Source: Vulcanimicrobiota bacterium
GTDB lineage: Bacteria > Vulcanimicrobiota > Xenobia > Xenobiales > JADMJV01
Direction of reading: 5' to 3'
Assembly (NCBI GenBank): GCA_050250895.1
Contig: JBFWNU010000002.1
Coordinates: 631,659-695,658 of the forward strand
Length of the DNA: 64,000 nt
Shown here: positions 24,836 to 41,257 of the stretch, one piece after another
Numbering within the stretch: the stretch's first letter is position 1
Layout: the number at the start of each line of letters is the position of its first letter
Translations under genes and position numbers: made by a program
The notes under the pieces: generated by a model
What the model saw: the letters and a program-made list of their open reading frames with translations, nothing else
Database searches by the model: none
Told to the model about the DNA's origin: nothing

Positions 24836-24922
24836 TGCTTCCTCCAGTAGACTTCTGTGGGCCCACCGTATGACGCTGGAGGATGCTTTTCGTTGCCTTC
24901 TTGTTACAACTATGTCAGGGTT

Positions 24923-25594
24923 GCTCGCTGCGCTCGCCGGGGAGCGCTCGCTTCGCTCACGGGGAGCGCTCGCTTCGCTCACGGGGAGCGCTCGCTTCGC
25001 TCACGGGAGAAGGAGCTCTCGCTTCGCTCGAGGGAAAGGAGCGGCACTTCGGGCCGGGATAAGAAGCGTCGGTCGCTACCGCTCCCTCCGAGATATGTGT
25101 TTCTAGCGGCGTCAGCCGCTCTCCCTGTCGACGCGCAGCGTCGCGAACTCCGCGCGAAGCGCCCGGCTCCTTCTCCCGCCGACGCAGTCGGCGCTCCCTG
25201 TCGACGCGAAAGCGTCGAGGTCTCTGCGAAGCGGCTCCTTTTCCCGCCGACGCAGTCGGCGCTCCCTGTCGACGCGAAAGCGTCGAGGTCTCTGCGAAGC
25301 GGCTCCTTTTCCCGCCGACGCAGTCGGCGCTCCCTGTCGACGCGCAGCGTCGAGAACTCCGCGCGAAGCGCCCGGCTCCTTTTCCCGCCGACGCAGTCGG
25401 CGCTCCCTGTCGACGCGCAGCGTCGAGAACTCCGCGCGAAGCGCCCGGCTCCTTCTCCCGCCGACGCAGTCGGCGCTCCCTGTCGACGCGCAGCGTCGAG
25501 AACTCCGCGCGAAGCGCCCGGCTCCTTCTCCCGCCGACGCAGTCGGCGCTCCCTGTCGACGCGACAGCGTCGAGAGCTCCGCGACGCGGCTCCC
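24923..25594. repeat. Composite palindromic element, copy 3
   Basis: Four 22-bp-type units, then the core, then units at 25126, 25199, 25267, 25335, 25408, 25481 and 25554 (73 or 68 bp; last one partial). Confidence 0.9.
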
Positions 25595-25705
25595 CTAGAG
25601 AAGCCAGTAGTCGAATTGAGAGAAGATAAAGTCGATCCCGGCCAGGCTGGCCAGGGCCACCACGCAAAAACAGATATGAAGGTCGAGGAAACGTTTCTGT
25701 AGCAT
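25595..25705 (-). CDS. Putative 36-aa hydrophobic small protein
   Basis: Manual translation MLQKRFLDLHICFCVVALASLAGIDFIFSQFDYWLL*. The stop abuts element copy 3. Confidence 0.4.
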   Translation of the reverse strand: MLQKRFLDLHICFCVVALASLAGIDFIFSQFDYWLL

Positions 25706-25788
25706 CTTGAATTTCGTTCAACTAGAACATTTGTTCTCCTCCCGGGCCGGGTGAAGGGGACTGAAACGCCCGTCCGGAATGGTGGGGG

Positions 25789-26037
25789 ATGAGCCGCCGA
25801 ACCTTCTACGGAAAAGTCCGAAGCATCCAAACTTATCGTCAAGACGAAGCCGTCTTGCGCCGGGTCTTCGTCAGTACCGGGCATCCCCGGGCCACTGCCG
25901 ACGCTACCCTCGAGATTCTCGAGCCCGACGGACTCGGGTCCGAGTTTCTGGCGGAACTCAAGCGCGCCCAGAATCACGGCTTTTCGGTTTCGGTGACCCT
26001 CGAAGGGTCGCAGATCGTAGACCTGCATGTCGACTGA
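25789..26037 (+). CDS. Small hypothetical protein
   Basis: 82-aa ORF after GGTGGGGG, overlapping the start of the next gene. Confidence 0.6.
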   Translation: MSRRTFYGKVRSIQTYRQDEAVLRRVFVSTGHPRATADATLEILEPDGLGSEFLAELKRAQNHGFSVSVTLEGSQIVDLHVD

Positions 26038-28201
26038 ATCGACGATCGCGTTCAAGGCGACGACCCTCGAGCGGGGTGGCGTGCTCGTCGAGTGGGGCGA
26101 GTTTCGGGCCCAGATCGGCGCCTATCCCGAGACCATCAAAGACACGATCGTCTCGAGCGAGGGCGTTCCCCAGATTTTCATCCTGCCCGAGCGACTGTTC
26201 GATATCCAGCAGGGTGTGACCATGGCCGAATTGGAGTTTCCGGTCTACTTCAACTTCTACGTCAAGCAACGAACGACTCGATTCGTTTGCCGGCAAGAGC
26301 AGCTCGGACCGATACTTCAGGTGCTCAAAGAATCGGTTTTCGGCCCCGCCGAACTAGACTATGCCCACGAGTATCATCGTGGCCGTGACTCGTTTGGCTT
26401 TCCCGACCTGGCCGACGAGATGAGCTATTTCAAGGAGGGTCCCGACGGCCGCAAGCTGCAACTCAACGACATGGTCACTCCGCGCGCCTTCGACCGCGAC
26501 GGGGTGGCCGAGATCGACGGAGTTGTCATCGAGGCGCTACCGCGCGACCACTATCGTTTCCGTCGGGGTAGCGAGCAACACGAGGTAGCCTTTTCACCTC
26601 TTCCCTTCGAATCGCTCAGTCTCGAAGGTCAGCGCTACACACCGCCAGTTTTTGGAGTCACCGTCATTGGCAGCGGGCACGGTTTCGACGCCAAGAGTTC
26701 GACTTCGGGTTTTCTCATCTGGCTCAACGGGCGCGGGGTTCTGGTCGACCCGCCGGTGCACTCCACCGACTGGCTGCGCCGCAGCGGAATCGACACCCGA
26801 CTGGTCGAGGATATCATCCTGACCCATTGTCACGCCGATCATGATTCAGGCACTCTGCAAAAGGTGCTCCAGGAGGGTCGGGTGGTGTTGCACACCACCC
26901 CCACCGTGCTCGAGAGTTTCATGCGAAAATACGGTGGCGTCACCGGCCTCACCTCAACGCAGTTTCGCAGTCTTTTCGATTTTCAGACCGTGACGGTGGG
27001 CGAGCCGATGCATATCGCCGGGGGGCGCTTCTGTTTCAAGTATACCTTCCACCCCATTCCCACCCTGGGGTTTGATCTCGAGTTCGGTGGCAAACGGTTC
27101 GCCTATTCCTGCGATACGCTCTATGAACCGACCATGCTCGGGCAGTTGGCCGACAGCGGCCGGCTCTCGCAGGATCGAGTCAAAGACCTGCTCGATTTCC
27201 CCTTTGATGCCGACCTGGTCTTTCATGAGGCCGGCGTCCCACCAATTCACACGCCCACCAGTGTGCTGGCCGAGCTGCCTGAGGAGAAGCGTCGCAATCT
27301 CTATTTGACGCACGTCTCGGACTCGGCCGTGCCCAGCACCTTGCGGCTTGCTCCCACCGGGGTCGAGAACACCCTGACGATCAAACTCGACGAGTTGCCC
27401 GACGTGACCCAGGCCCAGAAGATGCTCGAGGTGCTGGCCCACATCGAGATCTTTCAGGAGTTTCGTATCCGTAAGGCCCTCGAGTTTCTCTCGATTGCCG
27501 ACTACATGAATGTCGAGCCGGGCACCGTATTGATTCGCACCGGCGAGCCCGGCGACAAGTTCTTCGTGATCATTTCGGGCGATGCCCAGGTGATTAAGGA
27601 TGGCGAGGTGATCAAGGTGGCCAGCCGCTTCGACTATTTTGGCGAGATGGCTCTGGTCTTGAGCCAGCCGCGCTATGCCGATGTGGTGGCGCTGACCGCC
27701 ATGGAAGTGTTGGCCATCGGCCGTCGCGAGTTCTTGAACTTCATCGAGGGCACCGGGTTGCACGAGGTCCTGGAACGGGTCTCGGCCAACAAGATGCAGG
27801 GCTCCTGGCCCGTGCTGGGCGAGAACCGACTGCTCGGACCGCTCACCACCTATCAGAAGACCCAGTTGCTGGCCTTTATGGAGCTGACCCGCTTTGAGGC
27901 GGGCGAGGTGCTCTTTTCGGTCGGGCAAGCGGTGGACCGGTGTTTTCTCATCGACGAAGGCAAGGTCCGCCTGACCCACCCCGACGGAGACTCGGTCAGC
28001 CTGGGGCGAGGCGCCTTTCTCGCGGGATTGACCGACCGGAAAGAAGAGTCGATCTATCGAGTCAACGCCGGGGCCGTCGAGCCGACCATGGCCTACGTCA
28101 TGCCGGCAGGTCAGGTGCGGGCGTTCTTCGGAGCCAATCCTGGGACCTACGTGCGTCTATTGGCGGGACTTCATCACAACAAGTTCTGTTACTTGCCGTA
28201 G
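26027..28201 (+). CDS. MBL-fold cyclic-nucleotide phosphodiesterase-like protein with two cNMP-binding domains
   Basis: GSGHGFD, THCHADHDSG, H.IPT, FHEAG. CNB domain with FGEMAL...PRYADV, plus a second degenerate CNB. Confidence 0.88.
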   Translation: MSTESTIAFKATTLERGGVLVEWGEFRAQIGAYPETIKDTIVSSEGVPQIFILPERLFDIQQGVTMAELEFPVYFNFYVKQRTTRFVCRQEQLGPILQVLKESVFGPAELDYAHEYHRGRDSFGFPDLADEMSYFKEGPDGRKLQLNDMVTPRAFDRDGVAEIDGVVIEALPRDHYRFRRGSEQHEVAFSPLPFESLSLEGQRYTPPVFGVTVIGSGHGFDAKSSTSGFLIWLNGRGVLVDPPVHSTDWLRRSGIDTRLVEDIILTHCHADHDSGTLQKVLQEGRVVLHTTPTVLESFMRKYGGVTGLTSTQFRSLFDFQTVTVGEPMHIAGGRFCFKYTFHPIPTLGFDLEFGGKRFAYSCDTLYEPTMLGQLADSGRLSQDRVKDLLDFPFDADLVFHEAGVPPIHTPTSVLAELPEEKRRNLYLTHVSDSAVPSTLRLAPTGVENTLTIKLDELPDVTQAQKMLEVLAHIEIFQEFRIRKALEFLSIADYMNVEPGTVLIRTGEPGDKFFVIISGDAQVIKDGEVIKVASRFDYFGEMALVLSQPRYADVVALTAMEVLAIGRREFLNFIEGTGLHEVLERVSANKMQGSWPVLGENRLLGPLTTYQKTQLLAFMELTRFEAGEVLFSVGQAVDRCFLIDEGKVRLTHPDGDSVSLGRGAFLAGLTDRKEESIYRVNAGAVEPTMAYVMPAGQVRAFFGANPGTYVRLLAGLHHNKFCYLP

Positions 28202-28205
28202 GCCC

Positions 28206-28958
28206 TTAGTCGCTGGAAGGGCCGTTGAACCCGGCGATGGCACCCATGCTGAAGTGGTCGCGGCTATTTCTGAGGGTGAAGTTGATGGCGTCCTGGGGGC
28301 TGCCACTGGTGTCCATCCTCACATAGTCCCGACCGATGGCCGTCATATGATCGTTGAACATTTTCTCGACCGCCTGGCTGCCGTGCTCAGCGGCAAGCCC
28401 GGCCAGGCCGTCCTTGCCCTGGACCAGGTCTTTGGTTTCGGGTGTGAAGCCGGCCGCGGGCATTCCGTACTGCCCCTCGCCGGGCATCACCGACTGGCTG
28501 AGACGGTTGAACAGCTCGCCTCGGCGCAGGTCCTCGGGAGTCTTCAGCTCGGAGCCGGCCTGAATTCTGTCGATGCTGGGAAGGTTGTTGCTTTCTTTGA
28601 AAGCTTGATTGGCCTGTTGCACCTGGGTCTGGCTCGGGTTGGCAAAACCTGCCGCCTCCAGCGCCCTTTCGGATTCACGGGTCAGGTTGCTACCGGCCTC
28701 GACCTTCTTTGTGGGCTTGACCCCACCGTCAGGGAGCGGCTCGGTTTTGCCGAGGCCGCGGGTTGTTCCACCCCACGATTTGAGTCCCTGAGCCACGGTG
28801 CTGCCTGCTTTGCTAGGTGACTCCGGGCGTTTGGGCGCAGCGGCGGGTCCGGCCGGCCGGGCTGGGGTGCTGCGAGCTGCGGCCGGGGCCGCTTTCTTGG
28901 CCGGCGCGGCTTTGCGGGCCGGCGCCGGGGGTTTTGCTGTCGTACTTCTTACTGCCAT
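28206..28958 (-). CDS. Hypothetical protein with Ala/Pro/Lys-rich N-terminus and LysM-like domain
   Basis: KKVEAGSNLT...NNLPSIDRIQAGSELKTP resembles LysM. GGAG RBS. Confidence 0.65.
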   Translation of the reverse strand: MAVRSTTAKPPAPARKAAPAKKAAPAAARSTPARPAGPAAAPKRPESPSKAGSTVAQGLKSWGGTTRGLGKTEPLPDGGVKPTKKVEAGSNLTRESERALEAAGFANPSQTQVQQANQAFKESNNLPSIDRIQAGSELKTPEDLRRGELFNRLSQSVMPGEGQYGMPAAGFTPETKDLVQGKDGLAGLAAEHGSQAVEKMFNDHMTAIGRDYVRMDTSGSPQDAINFTLRNSRDHFSMGAIAGFNGPSSD

Positions 28959-29033
28959 CTCTCCACACTACCTCCTCGCATGACAATAGGTTGCCGAGTT
29001 GGTACAGGACCTTGGAAAATTGTTGGAAAAGTG

Positions 29034-29624
29034 TTACAGGGTTGTAAAGGAGTTGTTTCTAGACATCGGCGTCCGGGCTCGAAAGGCCTTGACCTTGGCT
29101 AGTAGACGTTGCATGGTAGGCTCGCTGGCGAGCTGGGTGGCCTCTTCCAGGGAAAACCAGCCGAGGTCTTTGGACTCTTCGGTCTTCACCAGCTCGACCC
29201 GTGGGCTGGTGAAGAGGTAGCGCAGGTCGTAATGCCAGTGAAAGGGTACATCCGGCCGGGCCGGCACGGGTAGCACATCGACGTCGAACGGGACCGGTTC
29301 GAGCAGTTCGAGACAGGTGAGCCCGGCCTCTTCGGCCGCCTCGCGGCGGGCCACCTCGAGGGGGTCGGGATGACCGTCGCAGTGACCCCCCAGCTGGATC
29401 CACATGGCGAGCTTGGCGTGATGGGTAAGGGCGAGGTAGGAAAGGGTGGGATCGAGTACGACAGCGGAAGCCGTCAGGTGTCCCGGGGGGTGGCGGTGGA
29501 AGCATTCGGGAGTGGCTTCTACGAACTCCAGTATCTGGTGGAGGCGCTGGCTGTCGTCATACTGGTAGCCCGGACGGGTGGGTCGGTAGCGGGCCAGTTG
29601 CTCTAGCAGAAGGCGGCGATGCAA
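29034..29624 (-). CDS. Nudix hydrolase
   Basis: GHLTASA, GGHCDG...ARREAAEEAG Nudix box, HYDLRY. Confidence 0.9.
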   Translation of the reverse strand: MHRRLLLEQLARYRPTRPGYQYDDSQRLHQILEFVEATPECFHRHPPGHLTASAVVLDPTLSYLALTHHAKLAMWIQLGGHCDGHPDPLEVARREAAEEAGLTCLELLEPVPFDVDVLPVPARPDVPFHWHYDLRYLFTSPRVELVKTEESKDLGWFSLEEATQLASEPTMQRLLAKVKAFRARTPMSRNNSFTTL

Positions 29625-29627
29625 AAG

Positions 29628-30197
29628 CTAGCCCACCTCCTCCATCTCCCAGGAGAGGATTCGGATCATCCGTTGGAGGGTCCGCTCGAGACAACCTTGC
29701 CGGTTGGGTATGACATAGTCATAAAAGGGTGTGAACTCGAGGGCCTGGCGTGCGTTTTCAACCCTTTCGGCGATCTGGGCATGGCTGTGCGCCCCCCGGG
29801 CTTTGAGGCGCGACTCGAGTTCGTCGGGAGGCGTGATCAGGAAGAAGGCCACACTGGCTGGCCAACATTTGCGAGCCATGCCCACCGTACCCAGATCGAT
29901 CATGGCCAGGGCGTGTTGGCCGTCGTGGACCCTTGCGTCGACAGGCTGGCGCGGTAGGGCGTAACTCATGCCGAATTCGAACTTGCGATAGGCCGCGAAT
30001 TCGCCCCGGGCTAATCGGGCCTCGAAGTCGTGGGCGTCGATGAATTGATAGTCGCTGCCCGATTCGCCGTCGCGCCGAGACCGGGTGGTAACCCGCTGGC
30101 AGAAGCCCAGTCGCTCTCCGAAGTGCTCTAGAAGAGCTTGTGTGATGGTTGTTTTACCCGCCCCCGAAGGACCGTCGAGAAGAAAGATGCCGGCCAT
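29628..30197 (-). CDS. Guanylate kinase-like protein
   Basis: GPSGAGKTT, TTR..R.GE..DY.F, L..RL..RG, YDYVI.N. Confidence 0.85.
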   Translation of the reverse strand: MAGIFLLDGPSGAGKTTITQALLEHFGERLGFCQRVTTRSRRDGESGSDYQFIDAHDFEARLARGEFAAYRKFEFGMSYALPRQPVDARVHDGQHALAMIDLGTVGMARKCWPASVAFFLITPPDELESRLKARGAHSHAQIAERVENARQALEFTPFYDYVIPNRQGCLERTLQRMIRILSWEMEEVG

Positions 30198-30244
30198 CCC
30201 CGTTGCTTCGCAGGACCGGCGCGAAATCCCGCCAAGGCGCGCTT

Positions 30245-30799
30245 ATGGATCGCTTACTGGAGCACACCCGGCGCGAGGCCCGCTATCTGGGCGAAGGCAT
30301 CGTCCTGGTGGATAGTTTTCTCAATCATCAGGTCGAGCCCGAGTTGATGAGCCTGATGGGACGGCTGCTGGCCCTCGGCTTCGAAGGGGTCGACCGCGTG
30401 CTGACGGCCGAGACCAGCGGCCTGCTGCCTGCCTTTGCGGCCGCTCAGGCGCTGGGGGTACCCATGGTGTTCGCCCGCAAGCGCCGGCTCAAGAACCTGA
30501 CCGACGAGGTGCTGGGAGTCGACGTTCTCAGTCGCACCGCGGGAGAGACCTTTCGACTTTCGGTGTCCCGTCGTTATCTGCCTGAGGGCGAGCGGGTGTT
30601 GGTGGTGGATGACTTCCTGGCCCGGGGCAACACCCTGGTGGGCCTGCTCGAACTGTGCCACCAGGCCCGGGTCGAGGTGGCCGGCCTGGCGGTGGTGTTC
30701 GAGAAGCCCTTCGAAGGCGGCCGCGAGAAGCTGGGAGGTGTCGAGGTGCGCTCGCTGATCACGATCGAGCTCGACGGCGACGAGGTCGTGTTTCGGTAG
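30245..30799 (+). CDS. xpt: Xanthine phosphoribosyltransferase-like protein
   Basis: VDSFLNHQVEP, TAETSG, FARK, VVDDFLARG PRPP motif, EK.FEGGR. Confidence 0.85.
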   Translation: MDRLLEHTRREARYLGEGIVLVDSFLNHQVEPELMSLMGRLLALGFEGVDRVLTAETSGLLPAFAAAQALGVPMVFARKRRLKNLTDEVLGVDVLSRTAGETFRLSVSRRYLPEGERVLVVDDFLARGNTLVGLLELCHQARVEVAGLAVVFEKPFEGGREKLGGVEVRSLITIELDGDEVVFR

Positions 30800-30851
30800 G
30801 AACCCACCTGGAATGCCTCGTATTAGTGGCAAACTCTTCAAGGGGGGTTTC

Positions 30852-31454
30852 GTGACCACAACCCAACGACTGGCAGACTTCGTTCGCCCTACCGTTTTCG
30901 GCAGGTTTCGCATGGTGAGCTATAACCATGGCGGAAATTTCGCCTTCGCGGCCATTCAGGGCGAACTACCGGTGGATCATCTGCCGGTGCGGGTCCAGTC
31001 GGCCTGTCTGTTTGGCGAGTCGTTGGGGGTCAATTCGTGTGATTGCGCTGCCCAACTTCACGAGGCGATGCGTCTGGCTGCCCAGGCCCCCCATTTTCTG
31101 GTCATTCATCTACCCGGCCATGAGGGACGGGGATTGGGCATGTTCCAGAAGATCAAGGCGGTCGAGGAAGAGGCCGTGGCCGGCGTGGACATGATCGAGG
31201 CGTTTCATCGCCTGGGCCTGCCTCTGGATTTGCGCGACTACAAAGTGGCTGCCGACATCATCCGCGATCTCAACGGCGAGCGACCCATTCGGCTGTACAC
31301 CAACAATCCCAAGAAGGTTCACGGCCTCGAAGAGCACGGGTTGACCATTAGCGAGCGGGTGCCGCTGCTGGTCGAGCCGCCCAACGACGAGTGCCGGCGC
31401 TATCTCAACAGCAAGCGTGAAGGAATGGGGCACCTGCTTCCCCAGCTTGGCTGA
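30852..31454 (+). CDS. GTP cyclohydrolase II family protein (divergent RibA); start may be 30813
   Basis: RVQSAC...SCDC zinc cysteines, EGRG, DLRDY, TNNPKK, YL..K..MGHLL. Confidence 0.88.
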   Translation: MTTTQRLADFVRPTVFGRFRMVSYNHGGNFAFAAIQGELPVDHLPVRVQSACLFGESLGVNSCDCAAQLHEAMRLAAQAPHFLVIHLPGHEGRGLGMFQKIKAVEEEAVAGVDMIEAFHRLGLPLDLRDYKVAADIIRDLNGERPIRLYTNNPKKVHGLEEHGLTISERVPLLVEPPNDECRRYLNSKREGMGHLLPQLG

Positions 31455-31459
31455 AGGCC

Positions 31460-34400
31460 TTGCCAGGCCCTGAAACCAGTCAGCTACGCACCATCCTGAC
31501 TGCCGACCTGGCCGGCTTCTCGAGCCGCCTTTCCACCGACGAAGCCGCTATCATCCGCTTGCTGGTCGACTCTTATTATCGGCTGGCGGAACGGGCTGTC
31601 GACTCCAACGGCGGAGAGCTCTTTCGTAAGGAGGGCGACGCTGTCTGGTGCAGTTTCTCCAGTGCCCGGGGGGCGGTGCAGGCGGCCATCGAGCTGCAAA
31701 TGGGTGCGCTGACCCACAATCGCGGCCGCGGAGCCGACAATCCCATGCACCTGAGGGTAGGCGTTCATCTGGGCGAGGTGGTGGTCACACCGGACGGCGA
31801 GATTCTGGGTCACACGCTTTCAGTGGCCAAACGACTCGAGACGGCTTGCGAGGTCGACGCCGTCCATCTTTCCGAGTCGGTGTACGCGCAGCTGGCGGGT
31901 TTGGACCTGGCTTTCGACTTCGAAGATCAGGGCGTGATCGACCTCAAGGGTGTGGGTCCTATCCGTACTTTTCTGGGTCGACCCAAGCACCGAACGACAG
32001 CCCCAGAGCCTGGCGGACACCTGGTGCTGGCCGCTCTGCTCGACACCCTCGAGCCCACCCGTCGCACCGAGTGGGAACGGGCCATGCTGGCCCTGGCCAC
32101 CCGTCTGGCGGGGTGGTGGAAAGTGGCTGAGAACGAGGTCGGCTTTCTGGTTCTGCCGGCGTCAGCCTGGCTCGAGCTGGCCGCCTATCTTGAGTGGGCT
32201 CCGCGCTGTGGTCTGGCTCTGGGGCCGGCGATGGTGCTCGAGCAAGAACTCTACGGCGCCGCGGTCGAGGAGGCTTTGAGCGCCCTCGAGTCGGGCTTTC
32301 AACCCGATTTGGTCGTGATGTCAGGTGAGGCCGCCGAGTTGGCCTGGCCGCCCTCCGGCCATTTTCGTCGCACCAGCTGCATCAGCGCTTTTGACGGTCA
32401 GAGCTTGCTCGACCTGGCTCAGGGAGGACCGCCGCTGGCCGCCGAAGCGAGCCGGTTGACCGCCGAACTCGAGTTGGAGCTGCCCAGCAGAACCCTTTTC
32501 CTGGGGGGATTTGAACCGCCCCGCTCGGGCCAGGTCGAGGGTTTGCGCCAAGCCCTGGCAGCCTCGCCGCTACAGCCCCGAGAGCTGGTCGGTCATCCTG
32601 GCTGGGGCCCTTCGGTGACGGCGGTGACCAGCCCGGAAGAACTCAAAACCTGGTTGGTGGGACGCCATCGCGCCGATCATCTGGCCGTGCTCTCGGAGGC
32701 TCTGGCCAACCAGACCCTGTCGCTGGTCTGCGCTGCCCTGGCCGGTGGAGAAGGGCCGGCTCTGGCCGAAGCCCTCGACCAGTGGAGCGGCCTCGCGCTT
32801 GAGGGAAGCCTGCCGGCTCGACTGGAAGAAGCCGAAGATGAACTCGGTCGCCAGGCCCTCGAAGTGGGTCTGCGCGATTGGCTAACGCAGTTACCGCCGG
32901 GGCGGTTGGAAGGATTGGTAGGCCGGGTGCCCCGGGAACGGGTGATCTGCCTGTTTCCCGACCCCCGCCTGGGCGAGTGCGAGTGGACTCTCACCGAGTC
33001 GGATTGGGACGAGCGCGGGGCCGAGCTCATCCGCCTCAACCGCGAACAGCAGCAGCGCCTGGCGGCGCAGCCGCTCTTGCTGGTCGCCTCGGCGGGCTTT
33101 GAAGAGCCGCTGCGGGTGTTCTATCGGCAGTTGCGCCTGCGCTGTCCGGCGACTCCCCAGCAGCTGACCGTGCTGGCCCTGGAAGAGGTCAGTCCGGGCC
33201 TGGCCAACTGGTGGGAGCGGCGCCAGGTGAAGGTTCTGGTCGAGGATTTCGCCGAGCTCGAGCGTCGCTTGCTCGAGGCCGCGCCTCGGCCATCGGGCGA
33301 GATTCCTCGCCGGCGGGCCCGCTCTCCCGAGCGACCTTACAAGTTTCTAGACTATTTCGATCCTGAAGACCGCAGCATCTTCTTCGGGCGCGAGAGTGAA
33401 ACCGAGCAACTCTATTCGCTCTTGTTGACGCGGCCGGTCTGCCTGCTGCACGGTCGCTCGGGCGTGGGCAAGACTTCGCTCCTGCAGGCCGGCGTGCTGG
33501 CGCGCCTGCCGCGCCCTCAGAACCTGGTGCTGGTGGTTCGCTGTCTCACCGAACCGGTGAGACTCATCCTGTCTGAACTCGAGCCGCTGGTGGGAGCCCG
33601 GACCAGCCTGCTCGAGGCCTTCGAGGCCGCGGTGGAGGTCATCTCTGGGCAACTGGTGATCGTGTTGGACCAGTTCGAAGAGTTCTTTGTTCGGCTCGAC
33701 CGCCAGTCCCGCACGCCGTTCTTCGAACAGATGGCCAGCCTGGTCACGCGGATGCCCGGCCGGTGCCATCTGGTGTTCTCGATGCGCGAGGACTTCCTGG
33801 CCGAGATGGCCGACTTCGAGCCCTATTTTCCGACCATCCTGGATCACCGTTTCCGGTTGCGTTCACTGGGTGAAGAACAGGCTCGTCGGGCCATTATCGG
33901 CCCGGCCGAACTGTTTGGACTCGAGGTCGAGCCCGCCCTGGTCGAGCGGTTGCTGAGCGAGCTCTTTCGTCAGGGGGTCGAGCCACCCGAGCTGCAGATC
34001 GTGCTCGACCGTCTCTATGAAACCCGCCAGGGGAGTCGCCTGGATCTCGAGGCCTACGACCGTCTGGGTGGAGTGCGTAGCATTCTCGTCGATTATCTCC
34101 ACACCACTCTCAGCAATCTGGCCGCCGAGGGTGTCGAGCTACCTTTCGTGCGCAGATTGCTCGAGCAGATGGTCACCGAGCGCGGCACCAAGGCGGTGAT
34201 GCGCATCGAGGAGCTGGTCGAGCGTTTGGGGCAACCCCTCGAGCTGGTCCAGCAGACGCTGCTCTCGTTGGTGGCCAGTCGCCTGGTGCGGGCCCTGGCC
34301 GACGACCAGGGCGGTCAATACGAATTGGCTCACGAGTACATCATCGCGGAAGTGATCGGTTGGGCCTCACAAGAAGAGCTGGCAGTTCGGCACGCTCGCC

Positions 34401-35470
34401 AGGTCTTGCGAGCCGAACTCGAGAGCTGGCAGACCATGGGCAGCTTGCTCAGTGCCGAACGTCTCAATCTGATCGCGCGTGAGCGGTCGCGTCTGGACTT
34501 TTCGCCTGAGGAGCGGGACCTGGTGGTGCGCGCGGCGGCGATCCACGGCTTCGAGTTGGGCCAATGGACCGATCAGCGGGACCGCGAGGTGCTGGCCAGC
34601 CTGCTGACCGAGGGCCACCCCTCCGGTCCGGTGGCGCGGGCCCTCGTGGCTCGTCTTTATGAACTCGATCCGGGCGATCGCCTGAGCCAGGTGATCGCCC
34701 TGGCTTGCCGCCGGTTCGGCAACCCGAATTTGATGGACCAGCTCGACCCCGGTAGAAGTCCGGCCCTTCATCAGACTCTTCAGGCGGCAACTAGAGAGAG
34801 GTTCTTTGGTCCCGAGAAAATGGTGAGGGTGGCCGCGGGCGATTTCTTGATGGGCAGTACGTCGGCGAACAAAGAGGCGCGCAAGCAGGCTTTGCGGCCC
34901 GACCAGCGGCCGGCCATCGAGAGTGAATCCGAGCTAGCCCCCGTCTGGTTGGCCGAGTTCCACCTCGACCGTCACCCGGTCACCAACGCCGAATTCGCCG
35001 AGTTTCGCGCCGAGCATGCCCATCGATTTCGCCCCGAACACGCGGACCACCCGGCGGTGTTCGTCAGCTGGTTTGACGCTGTGGCTTATGCCGAATGGCT
35101 GGGCAAGCGCCTGCCCAGCGAAGCCGAGTGGGAAAAGGCCGCGCGAGGTGATGACGGACGGTTGTTTCCGTGGGGCGACCGGTTCGAGGCCCACCGGGTC
35201 AACTCGGCCGAGGGCGGGCGCCAGGCTACCAGCGCGGTGGGAAGCTTTCCTAACGGGGCCAGTCCCTTTGGCTGCCAGGATATGGTCGGGAATGTTTGGG
35301 AGTGGACGGCCAGTGCCTGGAAGGAAGGCGCTCCGTTCAAGACCCAGAAGGGCGGCAGCACGGTCTGCTATCAAGCCCAGCTGCACTGCTCGACCCGCCT
35401 CGAGAGCTTTCCCGACTTCATCCAACAGTGGGTGGGATTTCGCACAGCCTGGGATGGAGGAGCGCCTTGA
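31460..35470 (+). CDS. Class III nucleotide cyclase + cyclase-like + SIR2-like + nSTAND1 NTPase + FGE-sulfatase protein (paralogue A)
   Basis: TADLAGFS, EGDAV, LRVGVHLGEV. PYKFL..F...D..IFFGRE, GRSGVGKTS, VLDQFEE, REDFL, YELAHE. LPSEAEWEKAARG, DMVGNVWEW. Confidence 0.9.
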   Translation: MPGPETSQLRTILTADLAGFSSRLSTDEAAIIRLLVDSYYRLAERAVDSNGGELFRKEGDAVWCSFSSARGAVQAAIELQMGALTHNRGRGADNPMHLRVGVHLGEVVVTPDGEILGHTLSVAKRLETACEVDAVHLSESVYAQLAGLDLAFDFEDQGVIDLKGVGPIRTFLGRPKHRTTAPEPGGHLVLAALLDTLEPTRRTEWERAMLALATRLAGWWKVAENEVGFLVLPASAWLELAAYLEWAPRCGLALGPAMVLEQELYGAAVEEALSALESGFQPDLVVMSGEAAELAWPPSGHFRRTSCISAFDGQSLLDLAQGGPPLAAEASRLTAELELELPSRTLFLGGFEPPRSGQVEGLRQALAASPLQPRELVGHPGWGPSVTAVTSPEELKTWLVGRHRADHLAVLSEALANQTLSLVCAALAGGEGPALAEALDQWSGLALEGSLPARLEEAEDELGRQALEVGLRDWLTQLPPGRLEGLVGRVPRERVICLFPDPRLGECEWTLTESDWDERGAELIRLNREQQQRLAAQPLLLVASAGFEEPLRVFYRQLRLRCPATPQQLTVLALEEVSPGLANWWERRQVKVLVEDFAELERRLLEAAPRPSGEIPRRRARSPERPYKFLDYFDPEDRSIFFGRESETEQLYSLLLTRPVCLLHGRSGVGKTSLLQAGVLARLPRPQNLVLVVRCLTEPVRLILSELEPLVGARTSLLEAFEAAVEVISGQLVIVLDQFEEFFVRLDRQSRTPFFEQMASLVTRMPGRCHLVFSMREDFLAEMADFEPYFPTILDHRFRLRSLGEEQARRAIIGPAELFGLEVEPALVERLLSELFRQGVEPPELQIVLDRLYETRQGSRLDLEAYDRLGGVRSILVDYLHTTLSNLAAEGVELPFVRRLLEQMVTERGTKAVMRIEELVERLGQPLELVQQTLLSLVASRLVRALADDQGGQYELAHEYIIAEVIGWASQEELAVRHARQVLRAELESWQTMGSLLSAERLNLIARERSRLDFSPEERDLVVRAAAIHGFELGQWTDQRDREVLASLLTEGHPSGPVARALVARLYELDPGDRLSQVIALACRRFGNPNLMDQLDPGRSPALHQTLQAATRERFFGPEKMVRVAAGDFLMGSTSANKEARKQALRPDQRPAIESESELAPVWLAEFHLDRHPVTNAEFAEFRAEHAHRFRPEHADHPAVFVSWFDAVAYAEWLGKRLPSEAEWEKAARGDDGRLFPWGDRFEAHRVNSAEGGRQATSAVGSFPNGASPFGCQDMVGNVWEWTASAWKEGAPFKTQKGGSTVCYQAQLHCSTRLESFPDFIQQWVGFRTAWDGGAP

Positions 35471-38400
35471 CCGAACTTCGTCTGGTATTGGTCGGTCGGG
35501 CCGGGCCGAGCCTGGCGGCGCTGGCTGTGGATAGTCTGGGTCGGGCGATGGCCACGATCTTGGCCGAGCAACCCCATCAGTTCGACGGCGACGGGCGTTT
35601 GCGAGCCACCTTTTCGAGTCTGGCCCCCGCTCTGCGCGATGTGGCTCGCTTGCTCGAAGAGATGAGCCTGCTGGAAGCCGCCTTCGACACTAGCTTCGAT
35701 TACGCCATGGCCCTGCATCTGGGGGATGTCAGCCAGGATGATCCTTTGACCGGACCGGCCGTCGACTTTGCCGTGCAGCTGCTGGATGGGACTCGGCCCG
35801 GCCACGTGCGCCTGGCCCCCTCGGTCCTCACCCAGGTTGCCTCACGACCCACCGCCTTGACCATCGAAGACGGTCAGGCCCGGCTGGATCGCGAGCGCCG
35901 CCAACAGTTGGTCGCGGGCGGTCAGGCTCGCCACGCTCCTCGCTTTGTGTTGGGCTGGACCGGCAACCAGCTAGAGCCGGATCGGCAGCTGTTCGAGTGG
36001 ACCCGAGCCCAGGGCGGCGAGGTGTTGCATTGGGGTGAGGAGGCCCGTCTGGCTATCGTGCCGCCTCGGGCCCAGGTGGCCGAGATCTTGCCTCGGCTCA
36101 AGGGACTGCGAGCCGCACTAGGGGTCGGAGAATTGGTGCCCCAACCCTCAGGGGAGGTGAGCGGGTTAGTGGTGGAGCAAGTGCTGGAGAGCCTGTTCGA
36201 GTCAGGCTTCGAGCCTGATCTGGTGCTCCTGACCGAGGCTGCCGCCCGCGCCCTGGGGGAGCTCAGTCTCGAGCCCTTCGGCCCCTCCGGCGGCCGGCTG
36301 GCGGTTCCCCTCTATCGATACTGCCCCTCGCCCGGGTCTTTACGGGCCAGCCATCGACCCCGGCGCGTCTCCTTGCCCGGACCGATCGATGTGGTGGTGG
36401 GGGTCGAGCCGGCCGAGCCTGGTCCCTTCGAACAACGCCTCTGCCGCTTCGAGCCGGCCTTCGCCCACCATCGACTGGTGCGGTCGAGCAACTGTCCAGA
36501 CCAGGCCGAGCTGGGCGTGGCCCTGGCTGCGGTCGCCTCTATGCGCGGGCTGAGCCTGCCCCCTCGATTGATCGAACCGGGCGAGCTGGACCAGCTCGAA
36601 GAGCTGCTAACCGGTCTGTCGGGTGATGGACCCGAAGCCCGCCTGCGAGGGCGCTTGACGGTGGTCGTGGCCGGCCCGTTGGGGGGGGAGAATCCTTTCG
36701 GCGACGGTGAGTGGGCACTGGCCGCCCAGAGCCTGGAAGAGGACGGGGGTCGGGACGCACTCCTGGCAGCTTATCGGAACTGGTGCCGAGAGCTTTCTCG
36801 ACCCGAATGGGTCCCCTGGCTCGAGGGGGCCGAGCTGGTGATCAGTCTCTTTCCCGACCCGCGTCTTGACGAACTCGAAGGTCCTCGGGTAATCCAACTG
36901 GCCGACGACCCTCTGTTGTTGACCGACAGCGACGCCGACCAGTGGCTGGCCGCCTTACCACAGCGGCTGGCTGGGGTGGCCGATGAGCTGGTGGGCCAAC
37001 CGTGTCTGCTGTTGGGACAGAGCCACAGCTTGTCGGGGCTCAAAGCGTTCTTTCGCCAGTTTCGCCTGCTGTATGGCGAGATCGAGTGCTTGGCCACCCT
37101 GCCGCCCGGCGAGGCTCGCTGGTGGCAACGTCGAGGGGTGGAGGTGGTGGGGGAGTCGCCTGCCGAGCTGGTAGCCCGCTTGGGGCCGCTCTCCGAGCCG
37201 GCGCTGGCCGGGCCGTCGGGCCGCCTGCTGGCTACTCCCGACCGGCCGTATAAGTTCCTCAGTTATTTCGAGGCCCAGGATCGAGCCATCTTTTTTGGCC
37301 GTGAAGCCGAGGTGGTCGAGCTCTCGCGCCGCGTTTTGCGCGAGCCCCTGCTGGTCATCTTTGGCCGCTCGGGCGTGGGTAAGACTTCGCTCTTGCGGGC
37401 TGGTGTACTGGTCGAATTGGGTCCGCCCCGCGACCTGAATCTCTATCTGCGCCCTTTGCGCGACCCTCTAGCTACTTTGTTGGCTCAGCTGGGAGCTCCC
37501 GAGCAGAGTCTGGTCCAGGCCATGGCCACGGCCACGGCCCGCTTATCGGGTCATCTGACTGTGGTTTTCGACCAGTTCGAAGAGTTCTTCGTGCACTGCC
37601 CGCCCGAGGTCCGCACCCGCTTCATCGCAGAGGTGGCCGGCTTCGTGGCCACGCCGCCCCCGCGGGCTCATCTGGTCTTCTCGATGCGAGAAGACTTTCT
37701 GGCCGAGATGTCCGAGTTCGAGGAGCATCTTCCCAGCGTGCTCGACAATCGATTCCGGGTGCGCGCTCTGGAGCGAGAACAGGCCCGCCAGGCGATCGTG
37801 GGGCCGGCCAGGCTGTTCGGTCTTGAATGGCAGCCAGAGCTGGTCGAGCTTTTGCTCGACAAGATCGACGATGACGGGGTCGATCCTCCCGAACTGCAGA
37901 TTGTCTGTGACCGTCTCTTCGAGGCCCGTCAGGGCAATCGGATCGACCTGGCCCTCTACGAGCAGATGGGGGGGATTCGGGCCGTGCTGGTGGGTTATCT
38001 CGAGACCACCCTGACTACCCTCGGTAGCGACATTCAATCGGCCCGTCGTCTGCTCAAAGCCATGGTGACCGCCCGCGGGACGAAAGCGGTGCTCGGCCTC
38101 TCCGAGCTCGCCCAGCGACTGGGCCAGCCCCCGGACCAGCTGGCCCAACTGCTCGAGGGTCTGGTCCAGGCTCGCCTGGTGCGGGCGCTATCGGACCAGG
38201 GTCAGGCGAGTTTCGAGCTGGCCCACGAGTACATCATCGAAGAGGTGGTCGGCTGGACCTCGGCCAACGAACTGGCCTTGCTACACGCCCGCCAGGTGCT
38301 CGACTCCGAACTGCTGGCGTGGCAACGCGACCGCAGCCTGCTGCCCTTGGACCGGTTGGCGGTCATCAAGCCTCACCTCCAGCTGCTCGAACCCGGTCCT

Positions 38401-39393
38401 CAGGCTCAAGCGATGCTGGTGAGGGCCGCCGCCCTCCACCAGCAGGATTTGACCGACTGGATCCTCGAGCCGGTAGCGGCCGTCCCCGCTCTGCTCGAGC
38501 TGCTGACAGAAGAGACAACGGCTCAACCGGTTGGCCGGAGCCTGCTGGTGGGCCTGTATGGACTGCAACTGTCCGACAGCCAGGCGGAAGCGATGCTGGC
38601 TGGCGCGCTACGCTTTGGCACTCCCGACTTTCTCCGAGGTTTGGACCGGTCCGGCCGACCGGGCCTCTACGAGCAGTTGTCGTTGAAGGTGCTCGAGCGT
38701 TACTATGGACCCGCCCGCATGGTCCGGGTGCCGGCCGGCCCCGCCTGGCTCGGTTCGTCTCGAGAGAACAAAGCCGAACGCAAGTCTCGCCTGCGGCCCG
38801 ACCTGCACGAGCGCATCGATACCGAGGCCGACTACGGCCAGGTCGACCTGCCCGAATTCTGGATCGATCGCTATCCGGTGACGCACCTCGAATACACCGA
38901 GTTCGAGCCTGGTCATACCCATTATTACGCTCCCCACGAGGCCCGCCACCCCGTGGTCTTCGTCAGCTATCATCAAGCCCAGAACTACGTCGCCTGGTTG
39001 GGCAAGAGCCTGCCCACCGAACAGCAGTGGGAGAAAGCTGCCCGTGGCAGCGACGGTCGTCTCTATCCGTGGGGCAACCAGTTCGAGTCGAGCCGGCTCA
39101 ACTCGGCCGAGTCCGAGCGCCGTCACACCACCCCGGTCGACGCCCATCCCACCGGAGCCAGCCCGTATGGCTGTCTGGACATGTCGGGCAACATCTGGGA
39201 ATGGACCTGCACCCCCTGGGCAAGCTCGGGTCCGTTTATGGCCAAGAAAGGTGGATGCGCCATCAACTTCGAGCCCCACATGCAGTCCTCGGCACGCTTT
39301 GAAGACCTGCCGGACATCATCCTTAAATTCGTGGGCTTTCGCGCCATCGTGCTCGACAACCCCTGGACTCGCGGCGAGGTGGACTGGTTTTGA
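35467..39393 (+). CDS. Degenerate cyclase x2 + SIR2-like + nSTAND1 NTPase + FGE-sulfatase protein (paralogue B)
   Basis: TTG start overlapping the TGA of paralogue A, after GGAGG. Same STAND and FGE motifs (GRSGVGKTS, FDQFEE, LPTEQQWEKAARG, DMSGNIWEW). Confidence 0.88.
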   Translation: MTELRLVLVGRAGPSLAALAVDSLGRAMATILAEQPHQFDGDGRLRATFSSLAPALRDVARLLEEMSLLEAAFDTSFDYAMALHLGDVSQDDPLTGPAVDFAVQLLDGTRPGHVRLAPSVLTQVASRPTALTIEDGQARLDRERRQQLVAGGQARHAPRFVLGWTGNQLEPDRQLFEWTRAQGGEVLHWGEEARLAIVPPRAQVAEILPRLKGLRAALGVGELVPQPSGEVSGLVVEQVLESLFESGFEPDLVLLTEAAARALGELSLEPFGPSGGRLAVPLYRYCPSPGSLRASHRPRRVSLPGPIDVVVGVEPAEPGPFEQRLCRFEPAFAHHRLVRSSNCPDQAELGVALAAVASMRGLSLPPRLIEPGELDQLEELLTGLSGDGPEARLRGRLTVVVAGPLGGENPFGDGEWALAAQSLEEDGGRDALLAAYRNWCRELSRPEWVPWLEGAELVISLFPDPRLDELEGPRVIQLADDPLLLTDSDADQWLAALPQRLAGVADELVGQPCLLLGQSHSLSGLKAFFRQFRLLYGEIECLATLPPGEARWWQRRGVEVVGESPAELVARLGPLSEPALAGPSGRLLATPDRPYKFLSYFEAQDRAIFFGREAEVVELSRRVLREPLLVIFGRSGVGKTSLLRAGVLVELGPPRDLNLYLRPLRDPLATLLAQLGAPEQSLVQAMATATARLSGHLTVVFDQFEEFFVHCPPEVRTRFIAEVAGFVATPPPRAHLVFSMREDFLAEMSEFEEHLPSVLDNRFRVRALEREQARQAIVGPARLFGLEWQPELVELLLDKIDDDGVDPPELQIVCDRLFEARQGNRIDLALYEQMGGIRAVLVGYLETTLTTLGSDIQSARRLLKAMVTARGTKAVLGLSELAQRLGQPPDQLAQLLEGLVQARLVRALSDQGQASFELAHEYIIEEVVGWTSANELALLHARQVLDSELLAWQRDRSLLPLDRLAVIKPHLQLLEPGPQAQAMLVRAAALHQQDLTDWILEPVAAVPALLELLTEETTAQPVGRSLLVGLYGLQLSDSQAEAMLAGALRFGTPDFLRGLDRSGRPGLYEQLSLKVLERYYGPARMVRVPAGPAWLGSSRENKAERKSRLRPDLHERIDTEADYGQVDLPEFWIDRYPVTHLEYTEFEPGHTHYYAPHEARHPVVFVSYHQAQNYVAWLGKSLPTEQQWEKAARGSDGRLYPWGNQFESSRLNSAESERRHTTPVDAHPTGASPYGCLDMSGNIWEWTCTPWASSGPFMAKKGGCAINFEPHMQSSARFEDLPDIILKFVGFRAIVLDNPWTRGEVDWF

Positions 39394-39887
39394 ACATCTG
39401 CCTGCTCTCGGACACCCACAGCTATCTCGACCCGGCCGTGCTTCATTGGGCCAACAAGTGCGACGAGATCTGGCATGCCGGCGACATCGGCAGCCTTGAA
39501 CTAGCTCACCGCCTGGCCGAGGTCAAGCCTCTGCGGGCGGTCTATGGCAACATCGACGACCGCGAGATACGCCTGGAATACCCCGAAGACCAGCTCTTCG
39601 AGTGCGAGGGCGCCAGCGTCTTCATGACTCACATCGGAGGTTACCCCGGCCGCTACGCCAAAGGCATCCGCGCCCGCGTGGCCCAGTTGCGACCTTCGCT
39701 TTTCATTTGCGGCCATTCCCACATCTTGCGCATCCAAAAAGACGAGAAGTTGGGGGTCTTTCACCTCAACCCCGGAGCCTGTGGACGGGTCGGCTTTCAC
39801 CAGGTGCGCACCCTCATGATCCTCACCCTCGAAGAGCGGACTCTCACCGATCTCAAAGTGGTGGAACTAGGACCGCGAACCGGCTGA
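39390..39887 (+). CDS. Metallophosphoesterase (YfcE/MJ0936-like)
   Basis: SDTH, HAGD, GNID, GHSH, NPG. Confidence 0.92.
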   Translation: MNICLLSDTHSYLDPAVLHWANKCDEIWHAGDIGSLELAHRLAEVKPLRAVYGNIDDREIRLEYPEDQLFECEGASVFMTHIGGYPGRYAKGIRARVAQLRPSLFICGHSHILRIQKDEKLGVFHLNPGACGRVGFHQVRTLMILTLEERTLTDLKVVELGPRTG

Positions 39888-41257
39888 TGCATCCTCTCGA
39901 ACCCGACCTCGACCAGAGCCTGGCTCTGGGCCGACAGGTCCTCGACCGGGTCGTCTCGCAGCTGGCGCAACTGTCGTCGGCGGCCAGCCATGGTCGCGAG
40001 GGGGCCAATCAGCTGGCCCTCTCGTTCGTCCAACCTCAACCGCCAGAACACGGTCGCCCGCTGGCGGACATCCTCGACCAACTCGAACGGGGTCTCGACC
40101 AAACCATCAATACGGCCGGCCCAGGCTATCTGGCCTATATCCCCGGCGGCGGTCTCTACGCCTCGGCCCTGGCCGCCCTCTGGTCGGCGGCCACCAATCG
40201 CTACGTGGGCCTGTGGGAACCCGCTCCCCCCCTGGTCCAGCTCGAGCAGAACGTCATTAGCTGGCTCTGCGATCTGGTCGGCTTTGGCCCTGACGCTGGC
40301 GGCGTTCTTACCAGCGGCGGCTCGCTAGCCAACCTGATCGCTACCGTCGCAGCCCGCGACCACCACCAACCCGAAGACTTCCTCGACGGCACCGTCTACG
40401 TGAGCAATCAAGCCCATCTTTCGGTGGCCAAGGCCGCTCGCGTGGCCGGCTTCCGCCGGGCTAACGTGCGCCTGGTTCCCACCTGCGACCAACGCCTCGA
40501 CCCCGTCGCTCTCGAGCAGATGCTGACCGAAGATCGAGCCGCCGGCCTGCGCCCTTGCCTGTTAGTGGGCAATGCCGGCACCACCAACACCGGCGCCGTC
40601 GACCCCCTTGAACAGCTCGCTCTGATAGCCGAGCGTCACCAACTCTGGTTTCATGTGGATGCCGCCTACGGAGGCTTCTTCCTGCTCACCGAGCGCGGCC
40701 GCCAGGCGCTGGCCGGCATCGAACGGGCCGATTCGGTCACCCTCGACCCCCACAAGGGCCTCTTTCTGCCTTACGGCACCGGAGCGGTGGTGGTGCGCCA
40801 GCGCGAGCACTTGCGAGCCAGCTTCTTTGCCCAGGCCGAATACCTCCAGGACCTCGACACCAGCCAGATCAACTTCTCGGACCTTTCTCCCGAGCAGAGC
40901 CGTGGTTTCCGCGGCCTGCAGGTCTGGCTGCCGCTCCAGTTGCACGGGCTGGGGGCCTTTCGCGACTGCCTGCAAGAGAAGCTCGACCTGGCCGACTGGG
41001 CCTATGCCCGCCTGGCCGCGGCCGGTTTCGACATGCTGGCCCCCCCGCTACTCTCGCTGGTGGCTTTTCGCCACCCCGAGGGCGATCAGGCCGGACGCCG
41101 CCTGCTCGAAGCCGTGCTGGCCCGCAAAGAGGTCTTTCTGTCGAGCACCCTCGTCGACGGTCGCTACACCCTGCGCATCTGCGTGCTCTGCTTTCGCACC
41201 CACCGCCCCCACGTCAAGGCGGCCGTGGAAGCCCTCATCGAACTGGCCAGGACCTGA
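39887..41257 (+). CDS. PLP-dependent group II amino-acid decarboxylase
   Basis: TSGGSLAN, AGTTNTGAVD, HVDAAYGG, DPHK. ATG overlaps the upstream TGA. Confidence 0.92.
   Translation: MHPLEPDLDQSLALGRQVLDRVVSQLAQLSSAASHGREGANQLALSFVQPQPPEHGRPLADILDQLERGLDQTINTAGPGYLAYIPGGGLYASALAALWSAATNRYVGLWEPAPPLVQLEQNVISWLCDLVGFGPDAGGVLTSGGSLANLIATVAARDHHQPEDFLDGTVYVSNQAHLSVAKAARVAGFRRANVRLVPTCDQRLDPVALEQMLTEDRAAGLRPCLLVGNAGTTNTGAVDPLEQLALIAERHQLWFHVDAAYGGFFLLTERGRQALAGIERADSVTLDPHKGLFLPYGTGAVVVRQREHLRASFFAQAEYLQDLDTSQINFSDLSPEQSRGFRGLQVWLPLQLHGLGAFRDCLQEKLDLADWAYARLAAAGFDMLAPPLLSLVAFRHPEGDQAGRRLLEAVLARKEVFLSSTLVDGRYTLRICVLCFRTHRPHVKAAVEALIELART

Follow-up and report, generated by a model that had tools for sequence, protein, structure and literature searches.

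A rare cyclase-STAND-FGE protein pair with a predicted cyclic-nucleotide phosphodiesterase partner in Vulcanimicrobiota

In a 64,000-nucleotide stretch of DNA from a Vulcanimicrobiota bacterium (assembly GCA_050250895.1, contig JBFWNU010000002.1, positions 631,659 to 695,658 of the forward strand; "the window", in whose positions coordinates without a genome prefix are given), two adjoining genes encode giant proteins, STAND A and STAND B, each with an N-terminal region of class III nucleotide cyclase ancestry, an nSTAND1 domain and a C-terminal FGE-sulfatase domain (FGE or FGS). The most constant partner of this pair is a nearby gene whose product combines a metallo-beta-lactamase-fold (MBL) hydrolase domain with two cyclic-nucleotide-binding (CNB) domains, here termed CNB-MBL. 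Judged from its genes, the locus is probably a rare, lineage-restricted cyclic-nucleotide module, in which the two giant sensors would make a cyclic nucleoside monophosphate (cNMP) and the neighbouring CNB-MBL enzyme probably destroys it, while a guanylate-kinase-like (gmk-like) enzyme may recycle the product. We rank first, at slightly less than an even chance, the reading that the conserved entity consists of the cyclase-nSTAND1-FGE pair and the CNB-MBL phosphodiesterase, with the gmk-like gene added in one family (f1). A preliminary description of the window, which had proposed a guanine-nucleotide-derived signalling or conflict system built from the pair and the purine enzymes beside it, is supported in part; CNB-MBL had been left outside the region assigned to that system.

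The STAND pair and its partners

Eight related loci were found outside the window, in two families of a single phylum (Eremiobacterota/Vulcanimicrobiota). Five are in genomes of the window's own family, f1 (G002, G006, G008, G012 and G009), two are on metagenome contigs with short flanks (L038 and L039), and one is in a genome of family f19 (G069). A peptide-pattern scan of 185,579 species genomes returned the same five genomes, and a phylum-wide search at E<=1e-30 gave 8 of 401 genomes, including the source genome (G000; 9.5 Mb, 99.6% complete) and a 1.5-kb fragment. Residues 1-625 of A, searched against 1.84 billion cluster representatives, matched only 12 proteins at E<=1e-30, showing that the family is rare.

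The CNB-MBL gene adjoins the pair in 7/7 loci with enough flanking sequence and encodes a protein of 720-765 aa. In family f1 the gene and the pair are divergently oriented and separated by the gmk-like gene; in G069, CNB-MBL reads in the same direction as the pair and overlaps the first STAND gene. Within genus g2 the four-gene block was intact and its downstream neighbour was different in 4/4 genomes. On the divergent side of the G069 module (L090, G069:C48 15089-18572), genes were also observed for a calcineurin-like phosphoesterase (409 aa) and for a protein of 727 aa that carries two cNMP-binding domains, placing more cNMP-related genes beside the pair of the distant family.

The N-terminal stretch of the CNB-MBL protein (~1-200) gave no match and is followed by the MBL hydrolase domain (~210-445) and CNB domains at ~465-590 and ~600-715; Pfam recognized cNMP_binding with 102 bits in two stretches and Lactamase_B with 28.5 bits. 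In a PDB sequence search the CNB domains were closest to PKG/PKA, and the best matches of the MBL domain were Apyc1 (7u2s, E 4.9e-6; 7t28, E 6.5e-6; also 7u2r), together with 1zkp and 6kns. These Apyc1/YhfI-like matches were weak (E 5e-6 to 8e-3) but consistently on top. The residues H267-C-H269-A-D271-H272 (HCHADH), H342, D363 and H408 were invariant in 16/16 sequences. Apyc1 and YhfI have been assayed as cNMP phosphodiesterases (PMC9117128; the PMC articles cited here were accessible in part and are cited for those parts). The order MBL-CNB-CNB is that of Dictyostelium GbpA and GbpB, phosphodiesterases of class IIb that are activated by the cNMP that they degrade (PMC11988041). The window protein differs in being bacterial and in its additional conserved N-terminal domain of ~200 aa, and is likened to these by domain layout; one NCBI record of its family bears the GbpA/GbpB name. 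We predict that the protein is a cNMP-regulated cyclic-nucleotide phosphodiesterase.

Genomes carry 2-4 copies of the CNB-MBL family, and the three other copies in G000 are not near cyclases. By rough arithmetic, the chance that one of four copies in 9.5 Mb falls within 5 kb of the pair is ~0.4%. In a tree of 42 sequences, the pair-adjacent copies occupied at least two separately supported places.

STAND A consists of a class III cyclase (residues 11-171), a linker (176-625), nSTAND1 (626-994), a helical region (995-1118) and the FGE/FGS domain (1119-1330). STAND B is a paralog with the same domain order, 39% identical to A across 1279 aligned columns. Both contain the Walker A motif GRSGVGKT and the pattern hhhhDQFEE (Walker B LVIVLDQFEE in A), and Walker A and hhhhDQFEE are kept in 12/12 pair proteins examined. 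The cyclase of A retains the metal-binding aspartates D16 and D60 and the transition-state residue R125, and D16, D60, R56, K124 and R125 are invariant in 9/9 cyclase heads of its family. For B, no Pfam cyclase match was obtained at E<=0.01 or at E<=5; its N-terminus is homologous to the family cyclase (hhalign probability 90%, E 1.7e-6) and is without D16, R56, K124 and R125 (A numbering). The preliminary description of two cyclase-STAND-FGE proteins thus holds for A, with its complete catalytic set, and for the nSTAND1 and FGE domains of both, and fails for the degenerate cyclase of B.

One defective cyclase was present in each of the 7/7 pairs in which both heads could be read. In the window and G069, the gene 2 cyclase is fully degenerate, having lost both residue sets; in the five f1 genomes G002, G006, G008, G012 and G009, it is gene 1 that is without both aspartates while retaining R56 and K124-R125, and gene 2 is complete. 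The latter arrangement is like the mammalian C1/C2 split, a heterodimer with one active site. Since one cyclase is crippled in every readable pair, the pair is probably active as a hetero-oligomer in which one protein catalyses and the other regulates or senses. Because B has lost every catalytic residue, a cyclase dimer of A and B would have no complete site, and A would have to pair with A. In the window and G069, catalysis could arise only from contacts between two intact cyclases (A-A), which would leave B the part of a regulator or second sensor.

The residue pair that sets cyclase specificity is K/D in adenylate cyclases and E/C in guanylate cyclases. At what we take to be these positions, assigned by mammalian adenylate cyclase numbering, A has a basic and an acidic residue, R56 and E114, and its family has Arg56 and Glu/Asp114. 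The canonical pair itself, K/D or E/C, is absent from A. The pocket appears to resemble the K/D of adenylate cyclases and not the E/C of guanylate cyclases which, with the motif as presumed here, speaks against the guanine- or xanthine-type nucleotide of the preliminary description.

The linker of A and B had no Pfam match, and ESM Atlas returned no usable match for A residues 176-625. In 4/7 distant homologues scanned, SIR2_2 (31-42 bits) was found just before nSTAND1, and the last part of the A linker corresponds to this SIR2_2-like stretch in relatives. The linker was considered as a SIR2 NADase; set against the SIR2 motifs as we presume them to be, the family shows FPDxRL and LTExDLD, but the catalytic His could not be placed, and NADase activity is not claimed.

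Two side observations concern relatives of these domains. A further cyclase of A's sub-family (profile E 3.8e-53, 41-42% identical) lies at G000:C6:209486-210019 on the minus strand, in an ORF of ~580-605 aa without a STAND module. Each of 13 listed matches to a small FGE-sulfatase-family gene in relatives (frames of 230-290 aa; examples in Table 1), spread over 13 genomes and two families, carries a single in-frame TGA. This recurrent TGA could be a selenocysteine codon rather than a sign of breakage.

The gmk-like kinase scored 109.8 bits with TIGR03263 (cut-off 160.45), and a canonical gmk is present elsewhere in G000 (contig C12, 228 bits), so the window gene is an extra copy. It adjoins the pair divergently in 7/8 loci, all of family f1, and not in G069. 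On L038 and L039 its distance from the cyclase start is 65 and ~230 bp, too little to accommodate the xpt and GTP cyclohydrolase II (GCHII) genes found in between in the window. The enzyme retains the P-loop, TTRxxR, Y50, D101 and the lid Arg. The Glu of the canonical gmk LEW motif, which we take to read guanine as in yeast Guk1, is replaced by Ala, Leu or Val in 11/11 gmk-like rows aligned, so the substrate may be other than GMP. Among the 41 genomes searched, the pair-type gene occurred only in pair-bearing genomes, and a copy borne by a metagenome-assembled genome (P0278) was 89% identical to that of the window. Copies not adjoining a pair formed their own clade (99/99 support), apart from the pair-adjacent ones, and sit by unrelated genes (PilZ, LspA, a methyltransferase); these include the second G000 copy.

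That second copy (G000:C3:383493-384041; L040 9473-11293, minus strand) is 52% identical to the window gene and supplies the C-terminal third of a 606-aa frame, over whose initial ~415 residues Pfam gave no match; it adjoins an MTS methyltransferase gene and a pseudouridine synthase gene. At L041 (G013:C159) 4940-6292, a gmk-like paralog stands between a PilZ-domain gene on its 5' side and a signal peptidase II gene on its 3' side. This arrangement with PilZ, a c-di-GMP receptor family, was seen in genomes without the pair.

Proposed mechanism and competing readings

We hypothesize that a ligand on the C-type-lectin-fold FGE domain would release NTP-dependent oligomerisation of the STAND proteins. 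Oligomerisation would pair the N-terminal class III cyclase domains, whose active sites would exist only at the dimer interface, and the outcome would be a burst of a 3',5'-cNMP, probably a purine one. The same cNMP would switch on the CNB-MBL phosphodiesterase through its two CNB domains and be converted to the 5'-NMP, as in GbpA/GbpB, so that this enzyme would read or end the pulse. The gmk-like kinase could then re-phosphorylate the NMP. As to what the module is for, we infer, by a slight preference over routine environmental signalling, a role in sensing non-self or invaders.

Several observations weigh against this account. All loci are in one phylum and 7/8 in one family, so conservation by descent remains a possible explanation of the shared gene order. 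The canonical transition-state Asn is Ser121 in A's cyclase family, and the A-B dimer of the window would be without a complete catalytic site. The Pfam model Anti-Pycsar_Apyc1 scored only 19-21 bits on the MBL domain (cut-off 50), and the CNB-MBL family is present in 15/15 f1 and 5/5 f2 genomes, pair or no pair. No evident toxic effector is encoded in the conserved block. G000 contains 30 cyclase domains and 26 CNB matches, indicating a general cNMP network. The FGE domain is the best conserved of all (49% between A and B, 76-88% between orthologs), unlike an arms-race sensor, and neither a template repeat of the variable-repeat/template-repeat (VR/TR) type nor RVT_1, as expected of a diversity-generating retroelement (DGR), was found in the 99.6%-complete genome.

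The last two points favour ordinary signalling, and a quite possible alternative, though one we hold with reserve, is that the same parts and chemistry serve signal transduction with no conflict role. The FGE domain would then respond to an unchanging ligand, environmental or endogenous, and the module, in this comparable to the mycobacterial cyclase-STAND regulators, would serve as a node in the organism's large cNMP network. The wide spread of the CNB-MBL family and the number of cyclase and CNB domains fit such a network, and a dedicated phosphodiesterase with a recycling kinase would be more in keeping with reversible signalling than with a suicide switch. The PADLOC search was essentially blank: it gave only marginal matches on the window, with no stretch passing, and the check for a known defence system yielded only PycC (E 8.4e-4, 16.5 bits). 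The ~18.4-kb segment that carries the locus holds no integrase and no tRNA. However, this segment is cleanly missing at the homologous site of a genus-mate (G001), the pair is patchy among close relatives (6/41 genomes), and flanks vary around an intact block. Further points against plain signalling are the nSTAND1-FGS architecture with its tandem duplication, as in predicted conflict systems, and the finding that A and B are the sole strong nSTAND1 proteins in G000.

It is unlikely that CNB-MBL is instead an effector that kills when activated by cNMP, as a nuclease or some other hydrolase acting in the manner of Pycsar or Pucsar, rather than a signal terminator. CNB-MBL is the sole CNB protein in the conserved block, its MBL domain also weakly matches RNase Z and PhnP, and MBL-fold hydrolases are reported to serve as death effectors in defence modules (PMC12642450). 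Its best sequence matches, however, are cNMP phosphodiesterases of the Apyc1/YhfI type, its domain order is that of GbpA/GbpB, which are phosphodiesterases (PMC11988041), and 2-4 copies per genome, also where there is no pair, would be unexpected of a toxin.

We also regard as improbable, taken as a whole, a self-contained immune or alarm circuit in which the host-encoded Apyc1-like, cNMP-activated phosphodiesterase would be an obligatory partner of the STAND-gated cyclase pair and would set the threshold and duration of a cNMP alarm, and in which the substrate read by R56/E114 would be an unusual purine nucleotide, made or recycled in G000 by the gmk-like and GCHII-like enzymes, the extra Nudix hydrolase and xpt.

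Neighbouring purine genes and the edges of the locus

The arrangement of genes reported in the preliminary description was confirmed (Table 1). The xpt-like, GCHII-like, A, B and phosphoesterase genes are co-directional, with gaps of 13 bp (xpt-like to GCHII-like) and 5 bp (GCHII-like to A), an A/B overlap of 4 nt (TTGA, 35467-35470) and a B/YfcE overlap at 39390-39393 according to the ORF coordinates. The gmk-like and Nudix genes diverge from the same 47-bp region, in which no sigma-70-like site was found, and a promoter/terminator scan did no better than shuffled sequence (3 vs 1.3±1.1 and 12 vs 12.1±3.3). Domain scans used Pfam, NCBIfam and PADLOC and covered 22 window ORFs between 16380 and 45692; no other riboflavin genes were present among these, again as described. 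All seven genes had the positions and domains first reported, except for the cyclase of B.

Table 1. Features of the locus (window positions unless a genome is named)
Feature	Position	Strand	Remarks
CNB-MBL protein, 724 aa	26027-28201	+	predicted cNMP-regulated cyclic-nucleotide phosphodiesterase
250-aa protein, Ala/Pro/Lys-rich N-terminus	28206-28958	-	without family match
Nudix hydrolase	29034-29624	-	Pfam NUDIX 45 bits
Guanylate-kinase-like (gmk-like) NMP kinase	29628-30197	-	Pfam Guanylate_kin 74 bits
Divergent intergenic region, 47 bp	30198-30244		between the gmk-like/Nudix arm and the xpt-GCHII-A-B arm
xpt-like phosphoribosyltransferase	30245-30799	+	Pfam Pribosyltran 54 bits
GTP-cyclohydrolase-II-like (GCHII-like)	30813-31454	+	Pfam GTP_cyclohydro2 132 bits
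STAND A, 1336 aa	31460-35470	+	Guanylate_cyc 46, nSTAND1 (PF20703) 200, FGE-sulfatase (PF03781) 159 bits
STAND B, 1308 aa from TTG at 35467	35467-39393	+	nSTAND1 208, FGE-sulfatase 130 bits
YfcE-family phosphoesterase	39390-39887	+	Metallophos_2 114 bits; TIGR00040 75 bits
Segment without counterpart in genus-mate G001, ~18.4 kb	21038-39396		blastn
Tandem arrays	21041-21136, 21928-22391, 24923-25043, 25121-25583
FGE-sulfatase gene with TGA, examples	G006:C117:37566-38072; G004:C40:43997-44512; G008:C67; G012:C112
FGE-sulfatase gene with TGA, more examples	G010:C27; G002:C13; G016:C115; G020:C4; G022:C66

The xpt-like, GCHII-like and Nudix genes were found in 0/8 related loci, and the 250-aa gene and YfcE likewise in none of the eight. 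Synteny of the purine genes with the pair held for the gmk-like gene and not for the other three. Canonical copies elsewhere in G000 were found for ribBA and gmk and not for xpt: the genome has no XPRT-like gene besides the xpt-like one, which falls just under the cut-offs for xanthine phosphoribosyltransferase (XPRT; TIGR01744, 160.6 vs 164.45; NF006671, 168.6 vs 177). Its ortholog in G001, 65% identical, lies in an unrelated context, and the window gene is probably a housekeeping salvage gene that is co-transcribed here.

The GCHII-like protein scored 132.7 bits with TIGR00505 (cut-off 205.85), and a canonical ribBA on contig C6 (246 bits) makes it an extra copy. Compared with 2bz0 and 4i14, it keeps the Zn-binding Cys triad and the Arg of ERDF, and has Val at the position of E. 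coli Tyr105, which we presume to be functionally meaningful. No close ortholog was found in 40 relatives; the best matches were 42-46% identical, the same level as canonical ribBA. The Nudix gene is likewise an extra paralog, 47% identical to a second copy at G000:C3:648898. Relatives carry one Nudix copy each (37-48% identical), and the copy at G000:C3:648898 is the one common to them. The 250-aa protein had no match in Pfam, NCBIfam or PADLOC, and its place in the locus is uncertain.

The xpt-like, GCHII-like, Nudix and 250-aa genes were added to the same divergent transcription unit in G000 and lie outside the conserved system; their close packing reflects a common transcription unit and is not evidence for a common function. 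The preliminary model, which gives xpt, GCHII, gmk, Nudix and the phosphoesterase the task of supplying, modifying and removing a guanine- or xanthine-derived nucleotide to be sensed or cyclised by the STAND pair, is consistent with the tight spacing around the shared 47-bp region, the extra, divergent GCHII-like, gmk-like and Nudix copies, the Val of GCHII and the missing guanine-binding Glu of the kinase, but we consider it very unlikely in view of the absence of xpt, GCHII and Nudix from the related loci, the GCHII-like gene without a close ortholog, the sole XPRT-like gene with its genus-mate ortholog elsewhere, the flanking housekeeping character of the phosphoesterase and a cyclase pocket that, as we take the motif, is not of the guanylate type.

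The phosphoesterase had been counted as a system member and drops out of it. YfcE is single-copy, is present in 13/15 f1 genomes and is located elsewhere in pair-bearing relatives, which makes it a neighbour and not a module member. The genes of window 16380-21037 have collinear orthologs in G001, and ~140 bp beyond these comes the YfcE ortholog (77%). By blastn, window 17806-21037 corresponds to G001:C146 10375-13636, and window 39397-39877 to 13777-14257. As the G001 YfcE gene comes directly after the ortholog of window 19412-21037, the ~18.4 kb between has no counterpart there. The G001 contig shows no similarity past YfcE, which places a second synteny break to the right of the locus.

Besides the genes above, the segment contains repeat arrays, a 23S_rRNA_IVP-like gene, an M13 peptidase gene and a 358-aa ORF. 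The M13 peptidase gene (22427-24982) has a set of tandem arrays on either side; the two sets are nearly identical, and in each a run of 22-nt units precedes a 73-nt unit repeated ~6.3 to 6.5 times. The first array begins exactly where similarity to G001 ends (21037). In this repeat-rich left end, 21340-21810 (minus strand) encodes a 156-aa four-helix protein of the 23S_rRNA_IVP family (116 bits) that also weakly resembles bAvd (23 bits); G000 is without a reverse transcriptase. On the 3' side of YfcE, a PLP-dependent decarboxylase gene (Pyridoxal_deC, 195 bits) occupies 39899-41257 on the plus strand. Farther right, 45600-47200 holds dense interleaved direct repeats in families of 43-300 nt, including a hairpin-like unit in 10 copies with spacings of 81, 139 and 178-189 nt, and the GC content reaches 71% in 46-48 kb.

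Comparison with known systems and meaning

The closest likeness is to the effector-nSTAND1-FGS proteins, which have variable N-terminal effectors, often occur in several copies and are predicted to act against invaders (Kaur 2021, PMC8195603). In keeping with the preliminary description, A and B are effector-STAND-sensor proteins of the kind predicted for conflict (PMC8195603). In one DGR clade, tandem STAND targets with C-type-lectin domains (STAND-CLec) occur commonly (Dore et al. 2024, PMC10907252). In the accessible text of these sources, the counter-invader function of the effector-nSTAND1-FGS family is itself a prediction (PMC8195603, PMC10907252), and STAND proteins with FGE/C-type-lectin sensors are ligand-orphan (PMC10907252). 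The window pair shares with the family nSTAND1, the C-terminal FGE-sulfatase domain, an enzymatic N-terminal effector and the presence of two adjoining paralogs (PMC8195603, PMC10907252). It differs in that its effector is a class III cyclase, whereas the effectors given in those parts of the two sources are TIR, DRHyd, calcineurin, caspase, trypsin, kinase and FHA. A DGR, frequent but not obligatory there, was not found here, and the FGS domain is conserved, not variable. The constant CNB-MBL partner, with the gmk-like enzyme in one family, is a further difference.

With Pycsar and Pucsar, the locus shares a class III-type cyclase next to a protein with cNMP-binding domains (preprint 10.64898/2026.08.12.744502; PMC9117128). 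The cyclase here is fused to nSTAND1 and FGS, whereas the preprint names NACHT and AP-ATPase, and describes STAND-fused cNMP cyclases as a predicted, uncharacterised "immune clade 1" (10.64898/2026.08.12.744502). The window cyclase is not of the Pycsar clade, its PADLOC match to PycC being negligible. Apyc1 itself is a phage counter-defence enzyme; the enzyme resembling it here is encoded by the host and conserved as part of the locus. The CNB partner contains an MBL phosphodiesterase-like domain, and no TIR or transmembrane effector was found in the block.

Among class III cyclases, heterodimers are known from mammalian C1/C2 and soluble guanylate cyclase, and cyclase-STAND fusions from mycobacterial regulators. 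In the five f1 genomes, one partner likewise has the Asp pair and the other the substrate and transition-state residues, and the fusion of a cyclase to a STAND ATPase is likewise that of the mycobacterial proteins. Unlike C1/C2, the halves are on separate STAND proteins of 1000-1500 aa, and neither residue set survives in the second cyclase of the window or of G069.

A literature search found no description of this module; the supplements of PMC8195603 and PMC10907252 may list cyclase-nSTAND1-FGS proteins. As most of the purine genes are local additions, an experiment needs only three or four genes, and the module would be a compact system to test, its output, cNMP synthesis, being measurable. 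A host-encoded relative of the phage anti-Pycsar enzyme could act as an in-built governor of the cNMP signal, and the asymmetric cyclase halves on two STAND proteins could make signalling dependent on hetero-oligomerisation.

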